Below are positions 5,328-32,475 of a stretch of DNA of 64,000 bases, piece after piece. The position numbers and the translations under genes are program-made. This DNA comes from Candidatus Tayloriibacteriota bacterium. GTDB taxonomy: Bacteria > Patescibacteriota > Minisyncoccia > Phycocordibacterales > SIBU01. Where the stretch lies: NCBI GenBank assembly GCA_009695005.1, contig SIBU01000002.1:7274-71273 (forward strand). Direction: 5' to 3'. Every line of letters starts with the position of its first letter. The stretch's first letter is position 1. The notes under the pieces are model-generated. The model did no database searches. It had not been told where the DNA came from and was given only the letters and a program-made list of their open reading frames with translations.

Positions 5328-6218
5328 TTATTTGTAACGAGATAAAAGATAATTTTCTAAGGATTTTTTCCAGGAAATTGTTTCTAAATTGTCAGAGTGC
5401 GCAAGGACAGTGCAAGTCGGACGTTTAACAGAGTGGGTTTTTTTGAATGAACATTTTTTTATGAGTGAAGTGTCGAGCTTAAGAATTTTTGCGACTTCCT
5501 TTGCAATGTCGTATTTAGTTACACCTTGTTCTTTTTTTGAGGCGCCGATTTGATAGATTTTTGTCGTATTAGGTTTTTTTTCAGATATAAGTTTAAGGGC
5601 TACATTGACTATATCTTTTGTCCAAACAGGAATATTGAATTGGTCATTTATCGCTTCGAGTAATTGATTTTGCTTAAGTGTTTTGACAACCATATCGATA
5701 AAAGTGTCACGACCGTCTCCATACAACCAACCGGCGCGTAAAATATAAAAATTCTCTGAAAAGTTTTTTCCGATTTGCTGAACGATTTGTTCCCCACCAC
5801 ATTTTGACCAACCGTAGACGTTTACAGGTGTAGGTAAATCATTTTCCACATACTTTTTCTTACTTCCACCGAAAATGTCGGAAGTACTGATTTGAATAAG
5901 TTTTGTGTCGGTAAGGTTGGATTCCTTGATTACCTCCGCGATGATCCCAGCTCCAATGGTATTGACGTTCCATGCGGTAAGCGGGTTTTTTTCACAGAAA
6001 TCTACATTTACCACAACCGCACAGTTTACTACGGCGTTGGGGCGATTTTCTGAAATTATTTTAGTGACTACTGTTTTGTCAGTTATGTCAGCGGATTCTT
6101 TGGAGTAAGCAATAATTTCCAAACCATTAGGTTTTCCAGATAAAGAAGCGAATTCTTTTCCAAGTAAACCATTTGAACCAAAGACAACAATTTTATTGTT
6201 AGTTTTTCTTGTAGTCAT
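5328..6218 (-). CDS. RmlD-like NAD(P)H-dependent NDP-4-keto-sugar reductase
   Basis: N-terminal Rossmann motif (KIVVFGSNGLLG). Has STSDIFGG (compare RmlD STDYVFDG) and YGWSK (YxxxK). ATG at 6216-6218. Confidence 0.5.
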   Translation of the reverse strand: MTTRKTNNKIVVFGSNGLLGKEFASLSGKPNGLEIIAYSKESADITDKTVVTKIISENRPNAVVNCAVVVNVDFCEKNPLTAWNVNTIGAGIIAEVIKESNLTDTKLIQISTSDIFGGSKKKYVENDLPTPVNVYGWSKCGGEQIVQQIGKNFSENFYILRAGWLYGDGRDTFIDMVVKTLKQNQLLEAINDQFNIPVWTKDIVNVALKLISEKKPNTTKIYQIGASKKEQGVTKYDIAKEVAKILKLDTSLIKKCSFKKTHSVKRPTCTVLAHSDNLETISWKKSLENYLLSRYK

Positions 6219-7389
6219 GGGAGAAGATGGATATTAGAATTTTTATATCTGAGTTCGACAGGTCGGGGTTATTTCCAAAATAAATTCCTTGTTCGTGGAT
6301 TAAAGAGGAAGTGGAATTTATAATTTGTGAACCTTTCATATATTTTTTAAAAAAAGGCTGTTTAGTCATGTCGCCACCAACTATTGGACGAATTTCCACT
6401 TTTTTATTGCAGGCTTCGATTATGGAGTCGCGGATTTCCTTTGTCTTGCAGATGATAGGGAAGGCGAAATTGGAAATAACATCTAAATGGTTAGATTGAA
6501 TTGGATAATATAAGTCAGTGCGTGTGTAGATTGCCTCAGCAAATTTTTTGAAATTACTTTCGCGTTTCTTGACGATAGTGTTTAAGTGGGAGAGTTGAGC
6601 GTTTCCAAGAAAGCCGGATATCTCGGTGGGCCTTAGGTTGTAACCTAGATCGTAAAATGTGTATTTTGCGTAAAGGGAGTCTGACACGCCAAATTCTTTT
6701 CTTATTTTTTTCTGTCCATCCTCTCCTAGGTTGCGGTCCCAGCCGTGGGCGCGGACAATTTTAAGCATTCGTGCTAACTTTGGATCGTCTGTGCAAACGG
6801 CGCCACCTTCAATTGTTGAGAGGTGGTGGGCAGCAAAAAAAGAAAAAGTGCTGGCAAGACCAAAGTTTCCAAGTTTTTTTCCTTTATAAACTGTACCAAG
6901 TGCCTCACAAGTATCCTCGAGAATCAAAATGTTCTTTTCTTTGCAGTAGGATTGAATTTTTTCCATATCGCCGCAAAAACCTAGAAGGTGAGTAATGAAA
7001 AGAACTCTGATAGGATTTTTTTCTGTTGCACTTTTGAAAGTTCTTGATGAAACGTTGAGGGTTTCGATTTCTACGTCAACAGGTATAGCCTTGAGACCAA
7101 GTTCAATAATCGGCATAACATTTGTCGCCCAAGTTAGTGCAGAAAAAGCTACTGAGTCTCCACGTTTTATAGTGCCAAGATTTAAAAGGGTTTGAAGAAT
7201 TGCTAGATTAGCAGAGCTTCCGCTGTTAAAAAAAACAGCATGCTTTCTGTTTTGCCATAATGCAAAAGAGTTTTCAAATTTTTCGCACTCCTTTCCGAAA
7301 CTTAGGGCGTCTGTTTTTTCTATGAAACGACAAAGTTTCTTTTTTGTGCCCTTTTCCTTGAAGAATACATTTTTGACAAGTGGTATCAT
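6199..7389 (-). CDS. PLP-dependent sugar 3-dehydratase, ColD/E1-like (DegT/DnrJ/EryC1 fold with His replacing catalytic Lys)
   Basis: DegT-family core (SGSSANLAIL ... FSFFAAHHLSTIEGGAV ... RAHGWDRN). The Schiff-base position is His (FFAAHH), as in ColD and E1 dehydratases. RAHGW is a ColD-type motif. ORF start at 7413 is TTG; the first ATG (MIPLVKN..) is at 7387-7389. Confidence 0.55.
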   Translation of the reverse strand: MIPLVKNVFFKEKGTKKKLCRFIEKTDALSFGKECEKFENSFALWQNRKHAVFFNSGSSANLAILQTLLNLGTIKRGDSVAFSALTWATNVMPIIELGLKAIPVDVEIETLNVSSRTFKSATEKNPIRVLFITHLLGFCGDMEKIQSYCKEKNILILEDTCEALGTVYKGKKLGNFGLASTFSFFAAHHLSTIEGGAVCTDDPKLARMLKIVRAHGWDRNLGEDGQKKIRKEFGVSDSLYAKYTFYDLGYNLRPTEISGFLGNAQLSHLNTIVKKRESNFKKFAEAIYTRTDLYYPIQSNHLDVISNFAFPIICKTKEIRDSIIEACNKKVEIRPIVGGDMTKQPFFKKYMKGSQIINSTSSLIHEQGIYFGNNPDLSNSDIKILISIFSHDYKKN

Positions 7390-9638: not shown

Positions 9639-10613
9639 TTATTCGTAATTTATTGTTTCAACCCTTCCTGATTTAGATGATTTTATAATCGCATCTAGTA
9701 TGATTGCTTGGTCGAGGAAGGCTTTGTTGTATTGAAGGTAAGACTCGGGTTTAATTTTTGCATAATGGTTAAACATTTCTAGAAAAGAATCGGAAGATTC
9801 TACTGGAATATCTTTGGCAATGTTGCGCGATCTGTAAAGGATGTTATTAGTGTAATCTTTCGGCGCCGTAAACGCTCGGTCCAAAGACAAATAAAAACCA
9901 GAACCCCACAGGTCTAAATTATTTCTATATTCCAGGTCAAAACCGATATCACCTTGTAAAGTTTTGCTTTCTCCGAAATCAATTGTAACCGCGGCTAGCA
10001 TCGGGATACCACTCTGTTTATTGATACTTACCGAACAGTACACCTTTTTCGGTCTACTGTTGAAATAATACTGACCAACCGAAACTAAGTAGGGGCCTAA
10101 GTCAAAGAGACAGCCTCCTCCAAGTTTTTTGTCGTTGCGGTAGTTATTTTTTTCTAGTGGAGGAAATCCAAATTGAACACTAATTTTATTCAGTGAAGAA
10201 GTTTGAGATTCTAATATAATTTTCAACTTTTGATGCTGGCTGTGATAAAGGTAGGGGATTGACTCAAAAATCAATAATTGATTATTTGCCAATTGGTAGC
10301 ATTTTTTCGCTTCTTTTTTTGAGAGTACTGCAGGCTTATCCACGATAATATTTAATTTTCTTTTCAAGCAGTAATCAATCAATTTGTAGTGTGATGAATT
10401 TTGCGTGGAAATATAAACGGTGTCACAGCCACTTTTCTCGATCGCTCTCTCATAATTATCAAAAATAGGTAGGTCGGAGTTGATTTTCGAAGCCTTGGTT
10501 TGTGAAGCGATGCCTACTAAGGTCACTTTTTTATGATTTTTTATAGCAGGAATTATTGCCTTTTGGGCAATAGCTGAATATCCAATGAGTAGAATTTTAT
10601 TTTTTTTTATCAT
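9639..10613 (-). CDS. Gfo/Idh/MocA-family oxidoreductase, putative NDP-hexose 3-ketoreductase (KijD10/OleW type)
   Basis: N-terminal Rossmann (KILLIGYSAIAQKAIIPAI). GFO_IDH_MocA layout (..DTVYISTQNSSHYKLIDYCLKRKLNIIVDKP..). Its stop lies 6 bp from the 2,3-dehydratase gene start, which implies a coupled function. Confidence 0.5.
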   Translation of the reverse strand: MIKKNKILLIGYSAIAQKAIIPAIKNHKKVTLVGIASQTKASKINSDLPIFDNYERAIEKSGCDTVYISTQNSSHYKLIDYCLKRKLNIIVDKPAVLSKKEAKKCYQLANNQLLIFESIPYLYHSQHQKLKIILESQTSSLNKISVQFGFPPLEKNNYRNDKKLGGGCLFDLGPYLVSVGQYYFNSRPKKVYCSVSINKQSGIPMLAAVTIDFGESKTLQGDIGFDLEYRNNLDLWGSGFYLSLDRAFTAPKDYTNNILYRSRNIAKDIPVESSDSFLEMFNHYAKIKPESYLQYNKAFLDQAIILDAIIKSSKSGRVETINYE

Positions 10614-10619
10614 TTAGCG

Positions 10620-11348
10620 TCAAAGTGGACTGAGGATTGCCTTTACATATGGATTAACTATATTATCAACTAACATTAAAGCTTTTATTTCCGATAGAGA
10701 TAGCCAAATAAAATTATCATTTTCTTGCAGGGGAAGTTTAACTCCTGGCTTCAACAGATTTAATCTGCTCACGTTGCTTTTTTGCCAGAATCTTCCACCC
10801 TCCTCATTCTGACTGGCGGAATAAATAATTGTTGTATCGGGATGGTCAATATACTCGCTAAGAATAGGTTTGTGGCCCGAGTGATGTTGTCTCAGGTTAC
10901 TCATCGTTGCTTGGATAGAAGGTCCGAATTGAATTCTATTAATATTTCCACCCTCAAACTTGGCCTGCAATAAAAATTTAATCTCCCCTTTAATTTCTTG
11001 ACACAAGATAACCAAGTAGCCCCCTTCTTCCTGGACTATAATTGGCTGATCCCAACCAGAGACCTCGGAACTATTCGCATTTTGCACTCTTATTCCTTGA
11101 ACTGAAAAAAAATGACTGGTGCCTGCTTTGTGTCTGACCATCCCTTCTTTCTCTGAGTAAATCCAATCTTTCAATGAAGAAATTGGGAGTATCTGAATCG
11201 TCGATTGGTTTTTTGCTCTTTTTTTATGTAACCAATCCGTAGCGCGTTTAATATTCACTTTTGCTTTTTTCTTGTTAGAAAAAACTTTTGACCTTAGTTC
11301 ATTTAACCTTTTAGTATAAACTCGGGAGTTATTTTTAACCGTTTCCAT
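10620..11348 (-). CDS. NDP-hexose 2,3-dehydratase-like protein, single domain (half the size of EvaA/TylX3)
   Basis: Motifs HFFSVQGIRV, DQPIIVQEEGGYLVIL, LLQAKFEGGN, SQNEEGGRFW and FIWLSLSEI align (from memory) with the C-terminal Nudix-like repeat of 2,3-dehydratases. Only one repeat is present (242 aa). Confidence 0.5.
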   Translation of the reverse strand: METVKNNSRVYTKRLNELRSKVFSNKKKAKVNIKRATDWLHKKRAKNQSTIQILPISSLKDWIYSEKEGMVRHKAGTSHFFSVQGIRVQNANSSEVSGWDQPIIVQEEGGYLVILCQEIKGEIKFLLQAKFEGGNINRIQFGPSIQATMSNLRQHHSGHKPILSEYIDHPDTTIIYSASQNEEGGRFWQKSNVSRLNLLKPGVKLPLQENDNFIWLSLSEIKALMLVDNIVNPYVKAILSPL

Positions 11349-11358
11349 GGTGGAATAA

Positions 11359-11387
11359 ATTATATATAGACCTATTTATATTTGCAA
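11359..11387 (-). promoter_or_regulatory. Candidate sigma70-like promoter for the 2,3-dehydratase/3-ketoreductase unit (-35 TTGCAA, 17-nt spacer, -10 TATAAT, ~10-nt leader)
   Basis: Minus strand reads TTGCAA-N17-TATAAT-ttattccacc-ATG(11348). Hexamers are at 11382-11387 and 11359-11364. AT-rich background makes chance matches likely. Confidence 0.3.
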
Positions 11388-11623
11388 ACTTGTATAAAAG
11401 ACTACCCATTTTCCCACTTTCTGAATGGCCGTTGATATTATTTTTGTAAAACAGGAAGCGATTTCAAACGTCAGTTTTCACTGAAACAAGTTAAGTTTTC
11501 TTTCAGGCTCAAGAATGAAAATAGCAGGTGCACGAACAGGCCCGCCACCGATATGATTTTGAATTTTTTTAAACCGCTTTACTAAATTGAGTGTGTTGAT
11601 TCCAGAATTACGTTAATCATGTT

Positions 11624-12487
11624 TTACGCTTTTCTATCAAACACACTATTTGATTTCAGTATTTTTGAAATACTCTGGGGGTAATAGTTCAAAGTGGTGT
11701 ATGTTTGAATACAATCCATAGATAAATTTGCTAATCTGATATCTTTTGATAAATCTAATTCTTCGGGGATAATCAGACTTGTGTCAAAATTAAAATGTTC
11801 TGCTATTTTTAAAGCAAAATCATATCTAGATAGACTTTCTGATCCTGCACAGTGAAATATTCCTCGATGCTCCTTTTCGATAATAATTCGAAGCATATTA
11901 CATAAATCTCCAATATAAGTAGGATTGTTTATTAGATTTACATAGGCATGAAAATTTCCCTCCCGTTTTAATTTCGTGTATACCTCATCAACAAAATCGT
12001 TTTTTGTTCCAAAAATTCCGCCTATTCGTACTATGACAAAATCAATCAAATTATTTCTTATCAGGTTCTCAGTTGCCAGTTTATCTTTCCCGTATTGCGT
12101 AGTTGGCACTGCAACTGATAATTCATCATGTTTATGAACGCCGTCAAAAACAGCATCTGTTGAAATATAAATCAATTTTATTTTATTTTCAAAACACTGT
12201 GAAATGATATTTTCTGAAGCTTCAAAATTAATTCTTCTTGAAAAAATCTTATCTGCTTCACATTTAGCCATATCCTTGCTTCCAGCAAGATGGAGAATAA
12301 TGTCTGGGGAAACAGATTTAATATATTGATTTGTTTTTATAAAGTCAGTTAAATCAACGTTACGGACATTTTCATGAATATGGGTATTAGAAAATCCAAT
12401 AGGAATAATTTGGTTTTCCTCGTCAGGAAGCATTCGCAATAATTCGCTACCGATATAACCAGTTGCACCGGTCATCAGAATTTTCAT
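11624..12487 (-). CDS. RmlD-like dTDP-4-keto-6-deoxyhexose reductase
   Basis: MKILMTGATGYIGSEL Rossmann. ISTDAVFDG (RmlD STDYVFDG motif). 287 aa is RmlD size. ATG at 12487. Confidence 0.6.
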   Translation of the reverse strand: MKILMTGATGYIGSELLRMLPDEENQIIPIGFSNTHIHENVRNVDLTDFIKTNQYIKSVSPDIILHLAGSKDMAKCEADKIFSRRINFEASENIISQCFENKIKLIYISTDAVFDGVHKHDELSVAVPTTQYGKDKLATENLIRNNLIDFVIVRIGGIFGTKNDFVDEVYTKLKREGNFHAYVNLINNPTYIGDLCNMLRIIIEKEHRGIFHCAGSESLSRYDFALKIAEHFNFDTSLIIPEELDLSKDIRLANLSMDCIQTYTTLNYYPQSISKILKSNSVFDRKA

Positions 12488-12760
12488 TTTATCATTTAGG
12501 AAAATTTTGATAATAACACTGAGACAATTAACAACTTCTTTCGATATTCTTAATTTGTTGACCTGTAAATATTTTCCGTATCCAGTGAAAATCTGGGGTT
12601 AAACTCATCGGAATTGGGAGTAAAAAATATATCCATCATGTACGTTTCGCTTTTTTGAAAGCAGATGTCATGTTAAAGCCCGTAAATCAGTTGCCGTCTG
12701 GGACAAGAATTTTTTTCATAAGGTTGAATATAATTTAATTACTTACCGTTCGTCTTAAAA

Positions 12761-14122
12761 TTATTTCTTGATTTTCTTGGTTGTTACTGTTTTTTTATAT
12801 TCCTCCGCTCCCACAATTCGAGGAAAGGGAATGGGGATAATAAATTTACCTCCTTTGTCGCTAAAATCTTTGAGGTTGGCAATGATTTCCTTGGAAAAAT
12901 TCCAAGCTAGAAGTAGTGCATAATCCACCCCTTCGTTTATGAGTTCTACGTCGGAGACGACAGGAACGTGTCCACCGCCATGGCCACCCGGTGCGAAGCG
13001 GCCAATTTTCAAGCGCGCTCTTTCCGAAATAAGTTTGATGTGTCGGTTTGAAACTCCGATGTAATTTAAAAGAGTCATGCCTTTGGCAGGAGCCGAAACC
13101 ACCGCCAACTTTTTTCCTTGGTGTAGTAGTTTTTCAATAATCGTCATGAGTTCATCGCGATTTTTTCTAACACGTTTGGCAAAATTAAGCATGGTTTCCT
13201 TTTCGTGGAGTTTTGATTCTTTTTCAGCTTGAAGGAATTTTTGGACACTTGCATCAATCGAACGTGTACCGGTCCTTGCTATAAACACTCTGATGGAACC
13301 GCCATGAATATTGGTTTCTCTAATCATAAATATTTCCAAACCAAATTTGGCGAAGAAAGAAATGAGGGGTTTTATGGAAAGGTAAGACAGGTGTTCATGA
13401 TATACGGTATCGTATTCAAGATTTTCGACGAGGTGCTGAAAATACGGCGACTCAAAGATGAAAACCCCGTTCTTTTTAAGGATATATTTTACCGCGCGCA
13501 TTATTTCGTGCAGATCATCTATATGCGCGAACACGTTTGTGCCGACAATGACGGAAGCTGCGCCGACAAGTTTTTTGACTTTTTTGGCGCTTTCCATGCT
13601 GAAAAAATCGCAGATAGTCTTAATACCGTGTTCTTTGTTGGCTATTGCAACGATATTCGGAGCGGGATCAACCCCGATGGTTTTCATTCCCAGCTCTTTG
13701 AAAGATTTAAGAAGTGTGCCGACATTGCTTCCGATATCGACAATAACGTCATCTTTTTTTAATGAAAGGTCGGCGGTGATGGATTCCGCGAAACTGCCCC
13801 AGTGAGCCTGACCCGTTTTGGTCATCGATTGCTCGTAAGGATAGTCTAGTTGATATAGGACTTTCGGGTTGACTATATGACTTAACTGCGAGAGTCCGCA
13901 ATTTTCGCATAAAAGGACTCGTAGCGGATAAGAAATTTCCGGGATATCTAGTTCGTGCGCCGCTCTGAATTGGTCCGCGGGTGGAGTTAAACCCATGTCA
14001 AGATACAAGAAGAGTTTAGGGCTTTTGCACATTCGACAGACGGATGTTACACGATAGAGGTCTTTTACCGCTTCAGCCTGGATGTCTTTTTGCTTATGAT
14101 TTGTTTTTCGGTTGATAGTCAT
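12761..14122 (-). CDS. NDP-hexose C-methyltransferase, TylC3/NovU/EvaC family (Zn-ribbon + MTase + C-terminal domain)
   Basis: N-terminal CxxC...CxxC ribbon (CRMCKS...CENCGLSQL). Class I MTase motif (VIVDIGSNVGTL). Typical family length. ORF start at 14137 is TTG; the first ATG is at 14120-14122 (MTINRK..). Confidence 0.6.
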   Translation of the reverse strand: MTINRKTNHKQKDIQAEAVKDLYRVTSVCRMCKSPKLFLYLDMGLTPPADQFRAAHELDIPEISYPLRVLLCENCGLSQLSHIVNPKVLYQLDYPYEQSMTKTGQAHWGSFAESITADLSLKKDDVIVDIGSNVGTLLKSFKELGMKTIGVDPAPNIVAIANKEHGIKTICDFFSMESAKKVKKLVGAASVIVGTNVFAHIDDLHEIMRAVKYILKKNGVFIFESPYFQHLVENLEYDTVYHEHLSYLSIKPLISFFAKFGLEIFMIRETNIHGGSIRVFIARTGTRSIDASVQKFLQAEKESKLHEKETMLNFAKRVRKNRDELMTIIEKLLHQGKKLAVVSAPAKGMTLLNYIGVSNRHIKLISERARLKIGRFAPGGHGGGHVPVVSDVELINEGVDYALLLAWNFSKEIIANLKDFSDKGGKFIIPIPFPRIVGAEEYKKTVTTKKIKK

Positions 14123-14401
14123 ATAATAAGATGCCAAATTCTTGCATATTTTTTTCTGATTTGCAACATCTGTAATGTATCACGACCTTCGCAATACATG
14201 AAGTAAAATTATGTATGTTCCAGACACGATAAATTTCCAAATCTTGCTTTACTTTAGACTAGGGATGCAATAAAGACCTTTCCTAAAAGATTCCGACTCC
14301 AAAAATAAATATGAGTAAGGTGAAGGAAGTGGAAGAAAATAGCAGAAAAAATTTCGTGTAAAGAATCAGCTAGGAAAAGCCTGTTTAAAAAATTGTGAAA
14401 A

Positions 14402-15667
14402 TTATCTGGCGGATTTTTTATCAAAACGATCTATGCATGCGTTCAGCTTGTTGCTTAGATTGCTAAAGGACCATCTTTCCAAAACTTTTTTACCGTTTAG
14501 TACGAGTTGTTTCTGAAGATTTTCGTCTTTAGAAAAGGAATGAATTTTTTCGGCAATATCCTCCGGGTTACTTGGATCGAACAGGAGAGCTGCATCAAAA
14601 ACTTCATCCAATATTCCGGGAACATTTGATTGAAGAACTGGCTTGTCCATGAACCACGCTTCGATTGTTGGGGTTTGAATCCTACCCATAAAGCTTGGAA
14701 TAATCATTGCGGAACAAAGGGCAAATAACGCACTCATTTCATCATTGTCGGCATAGCCAATCAGGTGGATTTGGTTTTCAATTTTTAAATCCTTGATTTT
14801 CTGGAGTACCTTCTCGTATTCTCCCCACAGTTCTTGTTTGCTTCCGGGTAGAACAAGGTGGAAAATTTCCCCTTTGTCTCGAAGAATTTTAACAGCCTCT
14901 ATCAAATTTCGATGGTTTTTATGGGGCCAAAATTGGGCTGGATAAAATAAAAAACCTGGGGGGAGACTGTGTTTTAGGGCAACTTCCTTCTTTTTCTCTT
15001 CCGAAACGTTTTTTGTCAGATAGATAGGTGGAGCGCACCGTATGACTTCCACAGTATTTTCATCTCTGCCATAAATTTCACAGAACTCTCTCTTGTTTTG
15101 GTCGATTTCAACTATTACAATGGTTGCCTTTTTGGCCACATTTTTATATAGGTATTCCCTTTTTTCCCACTGTCCTAAAGACCAAACTTCTGGAAATTGC
15201 CTGTTGAATCTGTGCTGAAGTTCGTGGACCACTACCAGCGAAGGAATGTTTGACAGATAAGACATTTCCGAAGGCCCGTGATAGACCATAAGGTCTATCC
15301 CGTGACCTTCAAAGTTAAGTGCTCTTTTTTTAGAGTTCAGCCTCGCCAAGAAAATTTCAACCCTGTACAGTCGGAGTGCGCGGAGAAGATTTATTATCAA
15401 CAAATTTATTTTTCTGCGGAATGTTGGTGCAACAGATTTTTCTTCGTTGACACTTTTGCCTTCCTCGGAATTTTTTATCCTTTTAAATCCAATAGGAACT
15501 ATTTTCCAGTTCGAATCCTTGAAATCTTCAAAAGGAAAATCAGGGGAAAGGGTGAATATGATGTAGTCATGTTTTTTATTTTCCTTAAATGCGGCAAGCA
15601 TATTGACGGCGTATTGGTATACGCCACCGGATTTCATATTGCATTCGAAATAGAAGCCTATTTTCAT
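14402..15667 (-). CDS. GT4 (GT-B) glycosyltransferase
   Basis: C-terminal Glycos_transf_1-like region (HLVLPGS...IHLIGYADNDEMSALFALCSAMIIPSF...EAWFMDKPVLQSNVPGILDEV). ATG at 15691 or 15667 (MKIGFYF..); the latter is chosen by analogy with GT4 N-termini. Confidence 0.5.
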   Translation of the reverse strand: MKIGFYFECNMKSGGVYQYAVNMLAAFKENKKHDYIIFTLSPDFPFEDFKDSNWKIVPIGFKRIKNSEEGKSVNEEKSVAPTFRRKINLLIINLLRALRLYRVEIFLARLNSKKRALNFEGHGIDLMVYHGPSEMSYLSNIPSLVVVHELQHRFNRQFPEVWSLGQWEKREYLYKNVAKKATIVIVEIDQNKREFCEIYGRDENTVEVIRCAPPIYLTKNVSEEKKKEVALKHSLPPGFLFYPAQFWPHKNHRNLIEAVKILRDKGEIFHLVLPGSKQELWGEYEKVLQKIKDLKIENQIHLIGYADNDEMSALFALCSAMIIPSFMGRIQTPTIEAWFMDKPVLQSNVPGILDEVFDAALLFDPSNPEDIAEKIHSFSKDENLQKQLVLNGKKVLERWSFSNLSNKLNACIDRFDKKSAR

Positions 15668-15862
15668 ATTATGTTTCGATAATGGTAGCATGTATATATA
15701 GGGTTTTCCACATATACTGTAACAATCGAAAATTGCTGTAGTTACAAGACGATATGATGTGTGAAGCGGATTTCTCAGCGATTTAGCCCTACTTACTAAA
15801 TTAAATAGTTAATTATTTCATCAAGTAGGATATGAAAGAGTGCTGTGCTAGTATTGTTGACT

Positions 15863-16654
15863 ATGAATGCACAAATTGTATCGACCTTGGGTCCATCTAG
15901 CGGAAGCGAGAAAGTTTTGGTAGCAATGATTAAGGGAGGTATAAATATAGCTCGATTAAATTTTTCATGGGGTACTCATGAGGAGCATGGCTTACGTGTA
16001 GATAACCTTCGTAAGGCTGCCAAAAAACTTAAAAAGAGGATCCTAATCCTTCTGGATTTGTCTGGGCCAAGAGTGGCTGCTAAAGGTGGACATCATTTTG
16101 ACGGTGTAAGTAAAAAAATATTGACTAAAAAGGATATAAACGATCTTAATTTTGCTAAGAAATATGGTGTTGATTACGTTGCCCTTTCTTATGTCGGATG
16201 TGCGGCAGATGTGGTAGATCTTAAAGAGGAGTTGAAGAAAAAAGGCGTTACCGCAAAAGTAGTTGATAAAATTGAAAGAAAGAAGGCTTTCGATAATTTG
16301 GATGAAATTTTGAAAGAAGCTGACGCCATTATGATTGCCCGCGGAGATTTGGGGAATGAAATTCCTTTGGAAAAAATTCCTTACGTTCAAAGTATTATTA
16401 TTGCCAGAGCCAAGGAGGCGGGGAAGCCGGTGATTACTGCAACAGAAATGATGATATCAATGGTTGAAAAATCAAGACCTTCACGTGCGGATGTTTCGGA
16501 TGTTACAGTTGCAATTTTAACCGGAACAGATGCTGTTATGCTTTCCGAGGAGACAGCTATCGGTAAGTATCCTGTTGAAGTTGTGCAGATGATGAAAAGA
16601 ATAGCCGTAGAAGCTTCTCGTCAGCCGTTCGCTAAACCTCTCAATTCTTTTTAG
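15863..16654 (+). CDS. Pyruvate kinase-like protein, A-domain (TIM barrel) only; lacks B (lid) and C (allosteric) domains
   Basis: PK signatures: IVSTLGPSS, INIARLNFSWGTHEEH, LLDLSGP, MIARGDLGNEIPLEKIPYVQSIII, PVITATEMMISMV, PSRADVSDVTVAILTGTDAVMLSEETAIGKYPVEVV. Only ~17 aa lie between DLSGP and the second barrel half. The protein ends at ~264 aa. ORF start at 15845 is GTG; ATG at 15863 gives the canonical MNAQIVSTLGP. Confidence 0.6.
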   Translation: MNAQIVSTLGPSSGSEKVLVAMIKGGINIARLNFSWGTHEEHGLRVDNLRKAAKKLKKRILILLDLSGPRVAAKGGHHFDGVSKKILTKKDINDLNFAKKYGVDYVALSYVGCAADVVDLKEELKKKGVTAKVVDKIERKKAFDNLDEILKEADAIMIARGDLGNEIPLEKIPYVQSIIIARAKEAGKPVITATEMMISMVEKSRPSRADVSDVTVAILTGTDAVMLSEETAIGKYPVEVVQMMKRIAVEASRQPFAKPLNSF

Positions 16655-16799: not shown

Positions 16800-17351
16800 A
16801 TGACCGAATGGACATTTGATGAAATTGAAGAAGGTAAAAGAACCCTAGCACGAATCAAGGAAAGAGGATTTCCCGTTCCACTCGATATTATTTTTGGCTT
16901 AACTGAGTCATTTTTCACTATCGTCGTTGAGTGCGCCGTGGTTAAGCGGTTTGACCACGGACCTACTGGGGTCGAGTGGCAGACACTCTGGATTCGCCGA
17001 CCCTCGGATGATCGTTATTACCCCAATAGGTGGCATATGCCTGGGAAAATGCAATTACCAGGGATCAGCATTCCGAAAATGATTGAGAGGACATTAGCTC
17101 GTGAAGTAGGCGTTGCTGTCGACGGAAGTCTGGTTCCCAAAATTGGTTTTTTTGAGGATATTGGCGGTCGTCGAGGGCACGAACATCAGCACCAGTACTT
17201 TGTCACTGTGCCGCAAGACTCCGAAGTAAAAACGGAAAAGGGCGAGTCTCATGTTTGGTGCAATGTGTTTGGGGCTCCGCCTCAGCCAACCCTTCAACCC
17301 CATCTGAAACTTCTTGAAAACCTTCGAGATTTCCTGAGAAAGAAGATTTAA
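16800..17351 (+). CDS. Hypothetical protein with degenerate Nudix-like segment; GC-rich relative to flanks
   Basis: ATG at 16800 preceded by SD AGGAAAGG (16785-16792). Followed by a hairpin terminator. The segment RWHMPGKMQLPGISIPKMIERTLAREVGV resembles a Nudix box, but the catalytic Glu residues are not conserved. Local GC is visibly higher than neighbours. Confidence 0.5.
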   Translation: MTEWTFDEIEEGKRTLARIKERGFPVPLDIIFGLTESFFTIVVECAVVKRFDHGPTGVEWQTLWIRRPSDDRYYPNRWHMPGKMQLPGISIPKMIERTLAREVGVAVDGSLVPKIGFFEDIGGRRGHEHQHQYFVTVPQDSEVKTEKGESHVWCNVFGAPPQPTLQPHLKLLENLRDFLRKKI

Positions 17352-17406: not shown

Positions 17407-18639
17407 CTAATATTTTTTAAGAAAATCAGTAAATATTTTTTTCATATAATCAAGCATTTCCGGAGTTAATCCTTGATGAGCACCTACTGCGAAGGTATCC
17501 TTCATTATTTTGTCGGCATTTTTGAGTTCCCCAACAACTCTTCGTGGTAAGTTTTTGTAAGCTGGATGTCTTAAGATGTTTCCCGCAAAGAAGAGTCTTG
17601 TTTGGATGTTTTGGCTTTCCAGGTATTTTACTATTGTAAAGCGGTCAAAGGGCGCCCCGTCTCTAATGGTAAGAGGGAATGCCAGCCAGCTTGATTTAGC
17701 ATTACTGTGTTCCTCCGGTAAAATAAAATATTTCTCATATTCCTTAAAAAACCTTTTTAAGGAATCAAAGTTATGTTTACGAATTTTAATTACATTCGGC
17801 AATCTTTTTAGTTGTTCTAGTCCGAAGGCGAACATCATTTCGACAGGCTTTAGATTAAAACCCATATGAGTATAAGTAAATTTCCTGTCATAATGAATAC
17901 CTGTAATTTTTGTGGTAAAACGCTTTTCTAGGCTTTCATCATCGTTAAGAGCTGCTCTACCCCATTCACGATAAGAATAAGCCGATTCGTATAATTTTTT
18001 GTCTGAAACCGCAACGATACCTCCGCCTCCTCCTGCCGTGATGTGATGTGAGGCGTAGAAACTTGACGTGGTTACATCACTGTAGGTTCCTGCCGGCTTT
18101 CCGTTGAATGTTCCAGCCATAGTGTCGCAACTATCATCTATGAGATAAAGTTTGTGCTTGTTGCAAAAAGCACGAAGTTTTACCATGTCATTTAAATTAC
18201 CAAAAGCGTGCGGAATTAATATCGCTTTAGTTTTTGGAGAAATCATTTTAGGAAGATTGTTGAGATCTAGGTTGTAAGTGCCAAGTTCAGAATCACCAAC
18301 TACAGGTACTAAATTATTGATATATATCGTGCTGTAAGTGGTAGAGAAAGTGCACGCAGGAGTGATTACCTCACTACCTGGAGGGAGATTTAATATTTTG
18401 AGGGCGAGTAGGTTTGCCGATGATCCTGAATTGACTACTATGCCGTATTTTTTTCCAAAAAGCTTGGAGGTTTTTTTTTCGAATTCCTCCACAATTGGTC
18501 CCATTCCAAGCCAGCCACGTTTGAGACAGGCTACTACTGCCTCTATTTCCTCTTCACCGTACACTGTTTGAGCATAGTAAACTTTATCTTTTCCTGGGGT
18601 AAACTTTCCTGACTTATTGTGTATTCCGTAATATTTCAT
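17407..18639 (-). CDS. PLP-dependent NDP-4-keto-6-deoxyhexose 3-dehydratase, E1/SpnQ-like (His in place of Lys)
   Basis: DegT fold (VVNSGSSANLLAL ... SFYASHHITAGGGGG ... YREWGR). The HH motif is at the Lys position. The E1-type FRDWGR-like motif is present. ATG at 18637-18639. Confidence 0.55.
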   Translation of the reverse strand: MKYYGIHNKSGKFTPGKDKVYYAQTVYGEEEIEAVVACLKRGWLGMGPIVEEFEKKTSKLFGKKYGIVVNSGSSANLLALKILNLPPGSEVITPACTFSTTYSTIYINNLVPVVGDSELGTYNLDLNNLPKMISPKTKAILIPHAFGNLNDMVKLRAFCNKHKLYLIDDSCDTMAGTFNGKPAGTYSDVTTSSFYASHHITAGGGGGIVAVSDKKLYESAYSYREWGRAALNDDESLEKRFTTKITGIHYDRKFTYTHMGFNLKPVEMMFAFGLEQLKRLPNVIKIRKHNFDSLKRFFKEYEKYFILPEEHSNAKSSWLAFPLTIRDGAPFDRFTIVKYLESQNIQTRLFFAGNILRHPAYKNLPRRVVGELKNADKIMKDTFAVGAHQGLTPEMLDYMKKIFTDFLKKY

Positions 18640-19564: not shown

Positions 19565-19566
19565 GA

Positions 19567-20556
19567 CTATTTATTTTTATAAAAAGACAGTGTAATCAAT
19601 AAACCTTCGTCAAAAGAAACTGCTGGTTTCCAGCCGAGCTCTACTTTTATTTTTGTACAGTCCAGTGAGTAACGAAAATCATGACCTGGGCGATCTGGTA
19701 CGTACATAATATAGGAGTTGTCGAGTTTGTGGAAAGCAAGTAATTTTTTTGTAAGTTCGAGATTGCTTAGTTCTGTGTTACCTGCAATGTTATAAACTTC
19801 ACCACTTTTCCCACTCTGAAATACCAAATCAATTGCTCTAATATTGTCCTCAACGAACAACCAGTCACGTATCTGGGCGCCCTCTCCATACAACGGAACT
19901 TTTTTGCCTCTTGAAAGATTGGTGGTAAAAAGAGGTATAAGTTTGCTTTTGTCTTGATGTGGACCGTAATTGTTGGAAGATCTGGTAATAATAATATCTA
20001 GACCAAAAGTATGGTGGTATGAATGTACAAGACGATCTGCTGCTGCTTTTGACGCACTGTAAGGATTGCGTGGCATAAGAGGGGAGTCTTCGGTAAAGAC
20101 CCCTTTTTTTGTTGCAAGTGCCCCGTATACTTCGTCGGTTGAGATAAAAAGAAATCTTTTTGTTTTGAATTCTCTCGCTAAAATAAGTAAATTGTGAGTT
20201 CCCATGACGTTTGTTTCTATAAACAGACTAGGGTTTTTTATACTTAAATCTACATGACTTTCCGCTGCGAAATGAATTATGTCAGTTGGCTGATATTTTT
20301 TAAAAATTTTACGTAAATTTGAAATGTTTCGTATGTCCGCTTTTTCAAAAATGTAATTTATTTCCTTATCAATTTTAATGTTATCGATGTTTGCCGCGTA
20401 GGTTAGGCTATCAATATTGATAAACAGTGTGTCGGGATAAGCGACTACAAATTTATTCAAATAGTGACTTCCGATGAAGCCGGCACCGCCAGTTACTACA
20501 ATTCTTTTTTTGTAGGAAGGGGGTGATTTTTTTGAATTACTTCTTTTTGTTGTCAT
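19567..20556 (-). CDS. rmlB: dTDP-glucose 4,6-dehydratase
   Basis: IVVTGGAGFIGSHY, HFAAESHVDLSI, TNVMGTHNLL, STDEVYG and YSASKAAAD are all RmlB hallmarks. ORF-track start is TTG (20601); the first ATG at 20556 gives MTTKRS... Confidence 0.7.
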   Translation of the reverse strand: MTTKRSNSKKSPPSYKKRIVVTGGAGFIGSHYLNKFVVAYPDTLFINIDSLTYAANIDNIKIDKEINYIFEKADIRNISNLRKIFKKYQPTDIIHFAAESHVDLSIKNPSLFIETNVMGTHNLLILAREFKTKRFLFISTDEVYGALATKKGVFTEDSPLMPRNPYSASKAAADRLVHSYHHTFGLDIIITRSSNNYGPHQDKSKLIPLFTTNLSRGKKVPLYGEGAQIRDWLFVEDNIRAIDLVFQSGKSGEVYNIAGNTELSNLELTKKLLAFHKLDNSYIMYVPDRPGHDFRYSLDCTKIKVELGWKPAVSFDEGLLITLSFYKNK

Positions 20557-21283
20557 TATTTTTATTGCGAATAAAATTTGCAGTTTCAAGCAAACTGTCA
20601 AACGTGCCTATATCGAACCATTCTTTTTTTAAAAAGATACCATGAAGTTTGCCATCCTTGATATATTGCTTGTTTATGTCGGTAATTTCGTACTCACCTC
20701 TCTCTGATGCTTTGAGACTTAAACATTTCTTAAAAACTGTACTGTCATACATATAAACACCGGTCACAGCGTAATTGGTCTTTGGTTTGGTTGGTTTTTC
20801 ATCAATATCTAGAATCTTGCTGTTTTGTCCAAGTGTAGCAATGCCGAATCTTTCAGGGTCCGCTACTTCTTTTAGAAACACCGTCGCTCCACTTTTGAAT
20901 TTTTTTATGTGTGGTGTTAGGTCGTCTTCAAAAATATTGTCGCCAAGATACAGCACACAGTTATCATTACCGATGTAATCTTTGGCGATCCATAAGCCGT
21001 AAGCAATGCCATTGGGCTGGTTTTGGATACCGTAGACAATTTGTATTTGCTTGCCGGTGCGTTTTGACATGAAATCAGCCCCTGAACCGAGAAGTTTAAC
21101 CATAGATTCGATTGCTTCAGGTGAAGTGACAATCATGATTCGGTCGATTCCAGCGTCTACAAGTTTTTTGACCGCGTAATAGATTACAGGCTTATCATAT
21201 AGAGCAAGTAGATGTTTGTTGGTAGAAACGGTTAAAGGACGAAGTCTGGTTCCACCACCTCCGGCGAGTATAATCCCTTTCAT
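20537..21283 (-). CDS. rmlA: Glucose-1-phosphate thymidylyltransferase-like sugar nucleotidyltransferase
   Basis: MKGIILAGGGGTRLRPLTVSTNKHLLALYDKPVIYY matches the RmlA N-terminus (MKGIILAGGSGTRLYP...IYDKPMIYY). ORF-track start is TTG (21337); the canonical ATG (MKGII) at 21283 is used. Confidence 0.6.
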   Translation of the reverse strand: MKGIILAGGGGTRLRPLTVSTNKHLLALYDKPVIYYAVKKLVDAGIDRIMIVTSPEAIESMVKLLGSGADFMSKRTGKQIQIVYGIQNQPNGIAYGLWIAKDYIGNDNCVLYLGDNIFEDDLTPHIKKFKSGATVFLKEVADPERFGIATLGQNSKILDIDEKPTKPKTNYAVTGVYMYDSTVFKKCLSLKASERGEYEITDINKQYIKDGKLHGIFLKKEWFDIGTFDSLLETANFIRNKNNDNKKK

Positions 21284-30012: not shown

Positions 30013-31113
30013 TTATTTGAACTTAAACTTATTGATTATTTCAATCACACTTTCAATTTCCTTGTCAGTCAGCTCTGGAAATATCGGTAAGGAGATGATT
30101 TTCTCGGAATCGTTTTCAGTGTTGAGTAAGGATCCATTTTTGTAACCAAGAAATTCGTAGGCTTTTTGAAGATGGACAGGGAAGGGGTAATGAATGCCAA
30201 AACCTATACTGTTCTTTTTTAGATGATCAATGAAGGATTCTCGTTTTGAGATCTTTACAACGAATAGATGGAAAACGTGAAGATTTCCGTTTCGGATTTT
30301 AGGTAATTCAATCTCAGGATTGTCTATTTTCGAGAGATATTGGTGTGCAATGAAGGCGCGTCTTTCGTTGTTCGAATCAAGTGTTGGTAGTTTTGTTCTG
30401 AGAATAGCGGCTTGAATTTCGTCAAGTCTACTATTGAAGCCCTCTATATTTGCAAAATAGGTTTCTTGCATACCATACACTCTAAGTTGTCTGCAGGTAG
30501 TGGCGTATTCTTTCGAATTAGTAAGAATCATCCCTCCATCGCCGTAAGCGCCAAGGTTTTTTGTGGGATAGAAACTGAAACAAGAAAGATCACCAAAACT
30601 TCCAGCTTTTTTGTCTCCCGCTTTCGATCCAGTGGCTTGAGCACAGTCTTCAACCACTTTAAGGCTGTGTTTGTTGGCGATTTTCATTATCTCGACCATA
30701 TCAGCTGTTTGTCCGTAAAGGTGAACGGGTAACAAAACTTTTGCTTTTCTTGTGATTGCGGCTTCAATTTTTCTTACGTCCATTAAAAAATATTCATCCG
30801 TATCGACAAATACAGGTGTTGCTCCTAGCTCACGAATAGCACTGATTGTTGGGGTCGCTGTGTTTGAGACTGTGATTACTTCGTCTCCGGTTCCTACCCC
30901 CAGGGTCTTTAAGGCTATTTTTATAGCATCAGTTCCGGAGTTAACTCCTATTCCATGTGTGGTGCCGATATACGAGGAGAATTCCTTTTCAAACTTATTT
31001 ACTTCTTCATCAAGCACAAATTTACCAGAGTTTAAGACTCTTTTTATGGCAGCATTCGTTTCTGCTTCGGTTTTTTTTACCAATCGTGTTGCGTCAAAAA
31101 AAGGGATTATCAT
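30013..31113 (-). CDS. DegT/DnrJ/EryC1-family PLP sugar aminotransferase (FdtB/QdtB-like)
   Basis: [15 protein letters not shown] (Lys retained) and [12 protein letters not shown]. Adjacent to an FdtA-like isomerase. Confidence 0.7.
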
Positions 31114-31526
31114 TTTTGTATTAGCTTTTTAAACTCCTCGTAATCACGAATATAGTCTTTTTCGTCATAGACTGTGTCGGCGAGGACGAGCAATATCGTA
31201 TTTTTTTTGAAATTTTTCATCTTGTGCCACAAATATGGTTCAAGAAGCAATCCTTCACTGAGTTTAGAAAGTGTAATTGTTAATTTCTCCTTTCCACTAT
31301 CTAATTCTACGTCGCATTCTCCTGTGATTACGATAAGAACTTGTCTCATTTTGTGGTGGGTATGGTCACCTCGCACATCACTTTCCTTCATGCCTTGAGT
31401 AATAAGAGTTTTTTTTACAACAAATGGAATTTCATTATCTTTCGGTCCGAATTGAATAGGTGTAAGTGTGCCGGTACTATTACTAAATGATGAAAAATTT
31501 ATTATTTTGTATAAAGTGTTTATCAC
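31110..31526 (-). CDS. NDP-4-keto-6-deoxyhexose 3,4-ketoisomerase, FdtA/QdtA-like cupin
   Basis: [11 protein letters not shown]...FVVKKT...VRGDHTHHK...[17 protein letters not shown] matches the FdtA pattern (tlTPIeF..RG.HAHK..Qvl...G). GTG start at 31526 is needed to keep the N-terminus. Confidence 0.5.
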
Positions 31527-31533
31527 GGTAGGG

Positions 31534-32475
31534 TTATTTATTTTTATAATTAAGAAGTTTTAAATATTCTGGCAAGTATTTTTCCAGAGAGGTTTTTGGT
31601 TTCCAACCGAGTTTTCTAGATTTGGATGAGTCGACTGAGTATCGAATATCTTGTCCAAGTCGGTTCTCGACGAATTCGTAAAGGTTTTCTGGTTTACCCA
31701 TGGCTTTCAGTACCATTTTCACAATTTCCAGGTTGGTAAACATTTCTCCAGAAGAAATATTATAAATTTCACCATTCAAACCCTTCTCCATCATAAGAAA
31801 AATTCCCTCACAGTTGTCCCCTGCGTATGTCCATTCACGTAGGTACGATCCGTCTCCGTGTACCGTCATTTTCTCGTTTTTTGTGGCCAGATTTACTGTT
31901 TTGGAGATAAGTTTTTCTGGGTATTGCCCATGGCCATAATTATTGCTTGATCGACAAATTTTAGCCTTTAATCCATAAGTTTTTACCCAGCCGGAAATGA
32001 GCATTTCTGCCGCAGCCTTGGCTGCTGAGTAAGGATTTTCAGGGTGAAGTTGGTCGTTTTCTTTGGCCGAAAATCCTTCTTGTATTTCGCCGTATACCTC
32101 GTCTGTGGAGATGTGAATGAGTGTCGGCCGGTCATTTGGATCCTTGGATCGTATTAGCTCTAGCAAATTGTAGACTCCTCGAATATTACTTTCAAAAAAT
32201 AGACCGTTTGATGTAATTGCATTGTCTACATGTGATTCGGCAGCGAAATTTACAAGATAATCAGCATTTTGAGGTAAATATCGTAAGGTGGCTATATCTT
32301 CACGAATAAGTTCGTATTCTGGATGAGCATCAAAATTGAGATCGTGCCTGGCAGCATAAGTCATTTTGTCGATATTGATGACGTGGTAGCCGTTCTTCAA
32401 AAGCAAATCAACAAAGTAGCTTCCAATGAAGCCCAATCCTCCTGTCACTATTACTCTTCTTTTGATTTCTGCCAT
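31534..32475 (-). CDS. rmlB: dTDP-glucose 4,6-dehydratase (second copy)
   Basis: VIVTGGLGFIGSYF, NFAAESHVDNAI, STDEVYG and YSAAKAAAE. Confidence 0.7.
   Translation of the reverse strand: MAEIKRRVIVTGGLGFIGSYFVDLLLKNGYHVINIDKMTYAARHDLNFDAHPEYELIREDIATLRYLPQNADYLVNFAAESHVDNAITSNGLFFESNIRGVYNLLELIRSKDPNDRPTLIHISTDEVYGEIQEGFSAKENDQLHPENPYSAAKAAAEMLISGWVKTYGLKAKICRSSNNYGHGQYPEKLISKTVNLATKNEKMTVHGDGSYLREWTYAGDNCEGIFLMMEKGLNGEIYNISSGEMFTNLEIVKMVLKAMGKPENLYEFVENRLGQDIRYSVDSSKSRKLGWKPKTSLEKYLPEYLKLLNYKNK

Follow-up and report, generated by a model that had tools for sequence, protein, structure and literature searches.

The 64,000-nucleotide stretch analysed here, called the window below, belongs to the metagenome-assembled genome (MAG) of a Candidatus Taylorbacteria from the Candidate Phyla Radiation (CPR), and holds a glycan locus more than 55 kb long. 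Within this locus, four co-directional genes on the minus strand code, in the order of transcription, for a C-methyltransferase, an RmlD-like reductase, a half-length homologue of the nucleoside diphosphate (NDP)-hexose 2,3-dehydratases and an oxidoreductase of the Gfo/Idh/MocA type. We propose that these enzymes, fed by an RmlA-like protein and RmlB, would produce a sugar linked to deoxythymidine diphosphate (dTDP), namely dTDP-2,6-dideoxy-3-C-methyl-D-hexose, which is either of the D-mycarose type or a C3/C4 epimer; we give this proposal a probability of about 0.5. 2-Deoxygenation and C-branching of hexoses are well known from the sugars of antibiotics; in glycans of the cell envelope, to our knowledge, hardly any cases have been described. 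The four genes, with the short names used below, are:

12761..14137, minus strand: C-methyltransferase (C-MT) of the TylC3/TcaB9/MtmC family, 458 aa from TTG 14137 or 453 aa from ATG 14122
11624..12487, minus strand: NAD(P)H-dependent reductase of the RmlD family (RmlD-like), putative C4-ketoreductase, 287 aa
10620..11348, minus strand: single-domain homologue of NDP-hexose 2,3-dehydratases (DH), 242 aa
9639..10613, minus strand: Gfo/Idh/MocA oxidoreductase (Gfo), putative NDP-sugar C3-ketoreductase, 324 aa

A sequence-only reading of the window had placed four co-directional genes at 9639-14137, and the list of open reading frames (ORFs) gives exactly these coordinates. It had also named a family for each gene, and was right in all four cases: the Pfam profiles match far above threshold, with E-values between 8e-16, for the weakest (GFO_IDH_MocA), and 2e-50, far beyond chance. 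DH and C-MT are each 100 % identical to an NCBI protein from a Candidatus Taylorbacteria MAG, that of DH being encoded on an 86-kb contig. Three contigs on record show this gene order, which makes a one-off assembly chimera unlikely; on this ground, a chimera was set aside as the source of the mosaic composition described below. The presence of these genes, their family membership, the conservation of their catalytic residues, the mosaic composition and the contexts in which relatives occur are established by the comparisons that follow.

The dehydratase is the most unusual member of the set. Canonical 2,3-dehydratases have about 470 residues and two PF03559/Nudix-like domains (EvaA, 471 aa). 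DH has a single PF03559 (Hexose_dehydrat) domain, which covers profile positions 4-202 of 203 at 171.5 bits against a cut-off of 25, so that membership in this family, on which the sequence-only reading had staked its proposal, is borne out; the two tandem Nudix-like domains in one chain of about 450-500 residues, of which EvaA is the paradigm, are not found. EvaA is nevertheless the best solved relative (E 1e-45). DH aligns with its N-terminal domain, residues 41-244, at 103 bits, and with its C-terminal domain, residues 263-451, at 54.5 bits; against the fused enzymes of other genomes, its mean identity is 36 % to the N-domains versus 29 % to the C-domains. Residues Glu132 and Glu182 of DH align with Glu139 and Glu190 of EvaA, and are strictly or almost strictly conserved in 22 single-domain homologues. 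According to a review, Glu139 and Glu190 are essential to EvaA, their mutation abolishing activity; of the two pockets of the enzyme, A is the active site and B an inactive relic of gene duplication, with no domain named for either (PMC8987622). Judged by numbering, both glutamates fall in the N-terminal half of EvaA, and DH appears to correspond to this catalytic domain.

An AlphaFold2 model of DH (pLDDT 82.9) leads to the same relative: EvaA is the sole close structure found by Foldseek, with an E-value of 6e-15, TM-scores of 0.75 (query) and 0.42 (target), and half of EvaA covered. The next matches are ordinary Nudix hydrolases, among them NUDT5, ADP-ribose pyrophosphatases and GDP-mannose hydrolase, and Nudix hydrolases of these types are homodimers. 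A single-domain enzyme would need to associate with itself, and two copies of DH presumably pair into a homodimer that mimics the pseudo-dimer formed by the EvaA domains. No second PF03559-like sequence occurs in the window, where a tblastn search with DH matches only DH itself. A 183-aa ORF at 16800-17351 on the plus strand, with an anomalously high GC content of 0.47 and a sub-threshold NUDIX match (19.5 bits, cut-off 21.1), was considered as the second half and rejected: hhalign gives it a probability of 0.1 % against the DH family, and it has no PDB relative. This ORF may encode a diverged NDP-sugar hydrolase.

Single-domain forms are a minority of the family, about 7 of the best 150 representatives (about 143 have two domains), out of 1360 representatives of the family in a set of 1.84 billion proteins. 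They occur in Alphaproteobacteria (cultured Bradyrhizobium; Brevundimonas and Caulobacter MAGs), CPR, Chloroflexi, Acidobacteria, Haliangiales and Pelagibacteraceae. A third form, in which the dehydratase is split into two adjacent single-domain PF03559 genes, was seen in Nitrospirota and Desulfobacterales MAGs (L056, 8975-10384; L062, 1570-2929; L070, 2836-4156); such pairs resemble intermediates between single-domain and fused enzymes. NCBIfam has no model for DH, nor for C-MT.

The gene of Gfo starts 6 nucleotides past the stop codon of DH. Its product matches GFO_IDH_MocA at 59.3 bits and GFO_IDH_MocA_C3 at 42.8 bits, and its best PDB match is KijD10, aligned over its full length (residues 7-310, E 2e-21) at 80 bits versus 50 for the next structure. 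Tyr175 is conserved, and the corresponding tyrosine has a catalytic role in reductases of the KijD10 type. Lys93, within the sequence DKP of the EKP/DKP motif, aligns with Lys102 of KijD10, which is the proton donor of that enzyme (PMC11167396). A role for Gfo as a 3-dehydrogenase of the WbpB/GnnA/NtdC type, working with an aminotransferase, was considered and judged unlikely: no such enzyme is recognisable by its deposited name among the 24 PDB matches, and KijD10 leads by 30 bits. At the loci screened, Gfo proteins adjacent to a DH are all full-length homologues of KijD10. Those of the clade found in the window score about 100-125 bits against KijD10, and those next to two-domain dehydratases, or in the locus L069 discussed below, 150-258 bits.

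The three-part architecture of the sugar C-methyltransferases, namely a zinc-binding domain, a class I SAM methyltransferase domain and Methyltransf_14 at the C-terminus, is complete in C-MT; the scores are 69 bits for Methyltransf_13, 67.8 for Methyltransf_23 and 154.8 for Methyltransf_14. The best PDB match is MtmC (4rv9), the D-mycarose 3-C-methyltransferase, with an E-value of 1.6e-90 and 39 % identity over 412 columns, the alignment spanning residues 8-420 of 426. MtmC scores 307 bits, TcaB9 229 bits, and 5t64, deposited as 'Sugar 3-C-methyl transferase' and presumably KijD1, 211 bits. A grouping with non-sugar methyltransferases, which would have spoken against the sequence-only reading, was not observed, since the nearest solved relatives are all sugar 3-C-methyltransferases. 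The substrate of MtmC, to judge by the name of the enzyme, has a 3-hydroxyl, and those of TcaB9 and 5t64 are 3-amino sugars, a 3-amino-4-keto sugar in the case of TcaB9; the greater closeness of C-MT to MtmC counts in favour of a mycarose-type product. Cysteines 34, 37, 77 and 80 and the residues Tyr246-His-Glu-His (246-249) are conserved with respect to MtmC, so that the four zinc-ligand cysteines and the Y-x-E-H motif are all present; work on TcaB9 reportedly established the roles of both, the motif being catalytic. The NCBI gene model, of 423 aa, starts at a methionine inside the first CxxC and would lose Cys34, which favours one of the longer starts (453 or 458 aa).

The fourth protein matches RmlD_sub_bind at 160.9 bits, and its best PDB relatives are the RmlD homologues 2ggs and 1vl0 (E 5e-28). 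The motifs GATGYIG, at residues 7-13, and Tyr132-x-x-x-Lys136 are present. Its score with the rmlD model TIGR01214 is 149.8 bits, below the equivalog cut-off of 224: it is a paralogous short-chain dehydrogenase/reductase (SDR) resembling 4-ketoreductases, and not the orthologous RmlD. RmlC is absent as well.

Outside the cassette, the following genes bear on the pathway:

14402..15691, minus strand: GT1/GT4-type glycosyltransferase (GT1; Glycos_transf_1), directly upstream of C-MT, candidate transferase of the branched sugar
19567..20556, minus strand: RmlB dTDP-glucose 4,6-dehydratase, TIGR01181 388.2 bits, cut-off 365.1
20537..21283, minus strand: short RmlA-like glucose-1-phosphate thymidylyltransferase, 248 aa, TIGR01207 245 bits, cut-off 360
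30013..31113, minus strand: DegT aminotransferase, in an overlapping rmlB2-FdtA-DegT operon, 19 kb from the cassette
31110..31526, minus strand: FdtA cupin (PF05523)
31534..32475, minus strand: second rmlB-like gene, TIGR01181 322.6 bits, just under the cut-off

The sequence-only reading had counted one rmlA and two rmlB genes in the locus. One rmlB is bona fide, while the second falls just short of its cut-off and the rmlA product is both short and well below its own, aligning with positions 1-239 of 286 of TIGR01207 and missing about 45 C-terminal residues; equally short forms occur at the related loci L069, L085 and L087. The rmlA-like gene and rmlB lie on the same strand as the cassette, 5.4 kb upstream. 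They open an operon (17407-21283, minus strand) that continues with a 316-aa SDR and then a homologue of the RfbH/E1-like 3-dehydratases, which depend on pyridoxamine phosphate (412 bits, cut-off 423). This operon suggests a 3,6-dideoxy sugar linked to dTDP and not to CDP, or a 2,3,6-trideoxy sugar if the RfbH-like enzyme acts in the manner of SpnQ on the product of DH and Gfo.

We can now outline how the cassette might work. The RmlA-like protein and RmlB would supply dTDP-4-keto-6-deoxy-D-glucose. Using Glu132 and Glu182, DH would remove the 2-hydroxyl through a C3/C4 enolate, giving dTDP-3,4-diketo-2,6-dideoxyglucose, of which Gfo would reduce C3, with Lys93 as the acid, to yield dTDP-4-keto-2,6-dideoxyhexose. 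C-MT, a zinc-containing enzyme dependent on S-adenosylmethionine, would then methylate C3 through a C3/C4 enediolate, and the RmlD-like reductase would reduce C4. Finally, the adjacent GT1, a candidate transferase whose homologues accompany C-MT in other loci, would add the branched sugar to a glycan exported by Wzm/Wzt. We infer each of these catalytic steps, their order and their stereochemistry from homology and context, and likewise the DH homodimer, the coupling of the modules and the glycan destination. No 5-epimerase of the RmlC/TylK type (dTDP_sugar_isom) appears in the precomputed Pfam annotation of called genes, which spans about 620-64000 of the window, the only cupin being FdtA; a D-sugar is therefore predicted, and not L-mycarose, since the 5- or 3,5-epimerase of the complete dTDP-L-mycarose pathways of the tylosin or erythromycin type is missing.

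The composition of the cassette is uneven. The GC content at third codon positions (GC3) is 0.438 for C-MT, 0.233 for the RmlD-like gene, 0.350 for DH and 0.354 for Gfo, that of the RmlD-like gene being the lowest of 31 values, obtained for genes in the first 32.5 kb of the window. AT-rich spacers of 273-279 nucleotides divide the cassette into three units, and a spacer of 349 nucleotides follows Gfo. Two of them deserve mention:

11349..11623: AT-rich spacer between RmlD-like and DH, 275 nucleotides, GC 0.338
12488..12760: AT-rich spacer between C-MT and RmlD-like, 273 nucleotides, GC 0.311, at the site of a 128-aa cupin gene in related CPR loci

The first contains a site resembling -35 and -10 boxes, TTGCAA-17-TATAAT, at 11387-11359, just upstream of DH; sites of this kind are at chance level in the region, and the promoter scan is uninformative on operon structure. 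The same scan found no terminator-like sites between the cassette genes, which we count in favour of the proposed route. Regulatory RNAs and mobile-element repeats at the junctions were looked for and set aside, the spacers having no Rfam match at E<=1, short repeats at chance level only, and no terminators. Remnants of genes (cupin, DegT, DUF218) were sought by tblastx and tblastn searches of the spacers and of relatives' proteins, and none was found. This composition suggests that the cassette is a mosaic of separately acquired modules. The DH-Gfo pair may derive by recombination from a DH-Gfo-aminotransferase module, and C-MT, possibly with GT1, from a C-MT-cupin-GT1 module, the low-GC RmlD-like reductase replacing the amination step.

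For comparison with relatives of DH, 79 species-level genome loci and 80 metagenome loci were screened with the window proteins; neighbours were counted in the 64 single-domain loci with at least 2.5 kb of flank on both sides. In 48 of these 64, a Gfo gene homologous to that of KijD10 is found no more than 2.5 kb from DH. Genes resembling rmlA and rmlB are recurrent neighbours of DH relatives in the loci tabulated, and most alphaproteobacterial loci show the order Gfo-DegT-DH beside rmlA and rmlB. This last triplet, with a single-domain DH, is very common in Alphaproteobacteria (L005-L054, L057, L082, L097-L168), and has a cultured carrier in Bradyrhizobium sp. BWA-3-5 (L057; CP136626, 2267053-2287619). 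It predicts an undescribed 2-deoxy amino sugar in the envelope glycans of these bacteria, and makes for a tractable system.

The combination seen in the window is much rarer. Of 140 loci with a single-domain DH, 5 have a full-length C-MT within 10 kb, and none was found at the 22 remaining loci, which have two-domain or split dehydratases; this agrees with the earlier remark that C-branched 2,6-dideoxy sugars are rare in cell-envelope glycans. Among the approximately 140 loci, only one other has rmlB, rmlA, an rmlD-like gene, C-MT, DH and Gfo together, contiguous and without an aminotransferase. It belongs to Patescibacteria group bacterium H41-bin079 (L069; JBBTSV010000014.1), where rmlB, rmlA, rmlD-like, DUF218, C-MT, DH and Gfo are co-directional, and no aminotransferase was found in 20 kb; its Gfo is 38 % identical to KijD10. 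The identities between L069 and the window are low, 32 % for DH, 40 % for C-MT, 26 % for the reductase and 24 % for Gfo, which points to independent assembly or ancient divergence: the same gene set was assembled, or kept, in two distant CPR lineages.

The relatives of C-MT tell of another habit. There are more than 6,000 homologues, and the nearest, at 55-86 % identity, bear mostly CPR names (Parcubacteria/Patescibacteria). The loci of four relatives at 67-82 % (L083, L084, L085, L169) consist of C-MT, a 128-aa cupin ORF and a GT1, usually with a DegT. The GT1 of the window is 41-47 % identical to the C-MT-associated GT1 of L083 and L084; L085 and L169 also have a GT1 of similar length near C-MT. 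In the window, the cupin is absent after C-MT, and the spacer, the low-GC reductase and DH-Gfo stand in its place. In Parcubacteria the full module, at L083 8001-12884, L084 8001-11103, L085 8001-9712 and L169 8001-12090, reads (O-)methyltransferase, C-MT, 128-aa cupin, GT1 and usually DegT, without a dehydratase, and may produce a 3-C-methyl (amino) 6-deoxyhexose. L085 has an SDR-C-MT fusion of 688 aa, and in L083 an SDR and a Gfo gene come after a second C-MT.

Several of these comparisons weigh against a mycarose-type product. A DegT aminotransferase lies within 2.5 kb in 60 of the 64 single-domain loci, and the closest DH relatives with a downstream flank available, at 53-60 % identity (L004, from Gottesmanbacteria, and L086-L092), are all arranged DH-Gfo-DegT; a still closer DH, at 64-65 % (P0004), comes from a contig of 5 kb that breaks off within the next gene, short of where a DegT could be seen. 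This near-constant partner indicates that single-domain dehydratases ordinarily serve to make an amino-trideoxy sugar. The DegT proteins of these loci are 45-52 % identical to the DegT at 30013-31113, those beside the closest DH-Gfo relatives being at 47-51 %, and their best annotated solved relatives are QdtB, 2oga and 5u1z, which we take to be C3-aminotransferases; the window protein itself matches 7b0d, deposited as glutamine--scyllo-inositol transaminase, followed by the same three. In such a setting, Gfo could act as a C3-ketoreductase followed by amination at C4, or as a C4-ketoreductase after amination at C3, and the resemblance of the partner to C3-aminotransferases is a reason to think that, in its native module, Gfo might reduce C4. 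Only 22 % of its residues are identical to those of KijD10, which, together with the usual partner of its clade, leaves its C3 regiochemistry insecure: a reduction of C3 is favoured by the adjacency of DH, and a role at C4 is possible. None of the four C-MT relatives examined has a PF03559 gene within 8 kb, from which it follows that this clade of C-MT normally methylates a 2-hydroxy substrate; in the window, a 2-hydroxy and a 2-deoxy-4-keto substrate appear equally possible. The divergent GC3 values and the spacers of about 275 nucleotides imply that the cassette is not an old, co-evolved operon. Lastly, there is no solved structure of a single-domain PF03559 protein in the PDB, and no study of such proteins was found in the searched literature. 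For the same reasons, the likeness to the logic of TylX3, TylC1, TylC3 and TylC2, which the sequence-only reading had advanced, is one that we infer rather than find: the four families fit it, and the half-length DH, the mosaic units, the missing 5-epimerase and the low identity of Gfo to KijD10 do not.

Three other explanations were weighed. The least improbable, although we hold it to be clearly less likely than the production of a single mycarose-type sugar, is that the cassette serves two independent branches. C-MT and RmlD-like would act on dTDP-4-keto-6-deoxyglucose to give a 6-deoxy-3-C-methylhexose of the evalose or virenose type, with its 2-hydroxyl kept, and the 4-keto-2,6-dideoxy intermediate of DH-Gfo would be finished by one of the three DegT proteins, by the RfbH/SpnQ-like protein of 17407-18639 or by the RmlD-like protein of 5328-6218. 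The separate acquisition suggested by composition and spacers, the dehydratase-free loci of the C-MT relatives and the scarcity of loci that join C-MT to a single-domain DH all agree with it, and spare tailoring enzymes do exist in the locus: beside the RfbH-like homologue at 412 bits, there are the second RmlD-like gene (5328-6218) and a second RfbH-like DegT, which together occupy 5328-7389. However, L069 holds the same six functions in one tight operon with no other tailoring enzyme; the unstable diketo and 4-keto-2,6-dideoxy intermediates would have to reach enzymes encoded 2-19 kb away; and the usual cupin and DegT of C-MT are missing here, their place being taken by RmlD-like, DH and Gfo.

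An unlikely alternative is a route of the vancosamine type, resembling EvaA-E, in which the distal DegT at 30013-31113 would aminate C3 after the action of DH, C-MT would methylate C3, and RmlD-like or Gfo would reduce C4, to give a 3-amino-2,3,6-trideoxy-3-C-methylhexose. Such a route would explain why the single-domain DH is almost always found beside a relative of that DegT, would fit the presumed C3-aminotransferase activity of the solved relatives, and has a parallel in the 3-amino-4-keto substrate of TcaB9. It would, however, leave either Gfo or RmlD-like without a role, and call upon a DegT that lies at a distance of 19 kb and already has its place in a separate operon of overlapping genes; the proximity of C-MT to an enzyme for 3-hydroxyl substrates and the lack of an aminotransferase in L069 also speak against it. 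We find it a little harder still to believe that DH-Gfo is the stranded remnant of a DH-Gfo-aminotransferase module and contributes to no sugar, only the C-MT/reductase part, or nothing, being functional. The loss of a near-universal partner and the empty 349-nucleotide spacer after Gfo, where relatives have DegT, are what one would expect of a remnant, but both ORFs are full length and keep all their conserved and catalytic residues, DH has a promoter-like site immediately before it, and the arrangement recurs on the three contigs.

A mycarose-type product is preferred to these three because it uses all four genes and requires nothing else except RmlA and RmlB; because L069 has the same set in a tight operon without an aminotransferase; because the closest relative of C-MT is MtmC; and because the distal DegT belongs to an operon of its own. 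Our confidence is only moderate, given the mosaic origin of the cassette, the habits of the closest relatives of its modules and the weak similarity of Gfo to KijD10.

The surroundings of the cassette are those of a surface glycan, as had been proposed from the sequence. The locus contains many GT1 and GT2 glycosyltransferases, along with GT10, GT11, GT87 and PMT_2, a Wzm/Wzt ABC transporter and a Wzy_C-TPR protein, which suggests export of a finished glycan and its ligation to a lipid or protein acceptor. Other genes include Gmd-like, Fcl-like and NeuB-like ones, a CMP-sugar synthetase, a GHMP kinase/nucleotidyltransferase/HAD set, a split transketolase and the rmlB2-FdtA-DegT operon. The transketolase consists of Transketolase_N and Transket_pyr genes at 45073-46754 (minus strand), beside two SDR genes and directly downstream of wzt/wzm; a two-carbon branching or chain-extension step for another unusual sugar is possible. 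At 36104-38011 (minus strand), a 635-aa protein fuses NeuB and SAF domains to an AP_endonuc_2 (xylose-isomerase-like) domain, and a separate CMP-sugar synthetase (CTP_transf_3) is found at 51271-51954 (plus strand); this pair suggests a branch towards nonulosonic acids in which one protein is an unusual fusion. Between GT1 and the 183-aa ORF, at 15863-16654 on the plus strand and with its neighbours on the opposite strand, lies a pyruvate kinase fragment of 263 aa, which matches TIGR01064 at 312 bits and has the barrel domain only, in two stretches. Full-length pyruvate kinases have about 476 aa, and this ORF could be a truncated gene or a minimal enzyme. Two ORFs match no Pfam family: 25886-26764 (minus strand), of 292 aa, with a GC content of 0.46 versus about 0.38 for the locus, and 21469-22635 (plus strand), of 388 aa.

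CPR surfaces are thought to mediate attachment to hosts and escape from phages. Should the proposed product be correct, a bacterium of an uncultivated, episymbiotic lineage would bear a mycarose-type sugar on its surface, and the known surface chemistry of CPR would be broadened; no paper on 2,3-dehydratases in surface glycans, or on Taylorbacteria glycans, was found in the searched literature. The single-domain dehydratases are of interest in themselves, being widespread in environmental bacteria, always in glycan loci for dTDP-sugars. They allow a test of the proposal that pocket B of EvaA is a relic, and are smaller parts for the glycoengineering of 2-deoxysugars. We tentatively advance, at odds short of even, a broader conjecture in two parts: that DH is a functional, homodimeric 2,3-dehydratase, an undivided form of the two-domain EvaA-type enzymes from before the duplication, with two equivalent active sites, and that CPR/Patescibacteria use it with C-MT to make a surface sugar of the antibiotic type, a 2,6-dideoxy-3-C-methyl sugar, through a pathway assembled recently by swaps of modules onto the shared dTDP-4-keto-2,6-dideoxy intermediate.

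It is useful, in closing, to set the cassette beside the systems that it resembles. DH shares with EvaA the Nudix-like fold and both essential glutamates, and differs in having one domain where EvaA has two in tandem. Gfo has the fold, the full-length alignment, the lysine and tyrosine, and the position next to a 2,3-dehydratase gene in common with KijD10 (PDB 3RBV), the C3-ketoreductase of dTDP-L-digitoxose biosynthesis, but is distant from it in sequence, and its clade normally pairs with a DegT aminotransferase. L069 resembles the window in its rmlB, short rmlA, rmlD-like gene, C-MT, single-domain DH and Gfo, all co-directional in a glycan context; its genes are tightly packed, without spacers, and its Gfo resembles KijD10 far more than that of the window does. 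The DH-Gfo-DegT and Gfo-DegT-DH triplets of Alphaproteobacteria, CPR, Chloroflexi and others have the same DH family, usually the same Gfo family, and rmlA/rmlB beside them; they include an aminotransferase and lack C-MT, their product presumably being an amino-trideoxy sugar, whereas the window has C-MT and a reductase and no adjacent DegT. The lipopolysaccharide of Coxiella burnetii reportedly contains the C-branched sugars virenose and dihydrohydroxystreptose, and is said to involve a C-methyltransferase of the Methyltransf_13/14 type in an envelope glycan pathway, as here, but the 2-hydroxyl is kept, without a 2,3-dehydratase. The antibiotic pathways to dTDP-mycarose, with TylX3, TylC1, TylC3, TylK and TylC2 for tylosin, and MtmC for the D-mycarose of mithramycin, employ the same four chemistries and homologous families, and are fed by RmlA and RmlB; the window differs from them in having no 5-epimerase and a single-domain DH, in lying in a CPR glycan locus instead of a polyketide cluster, and in being a recent mosaic.

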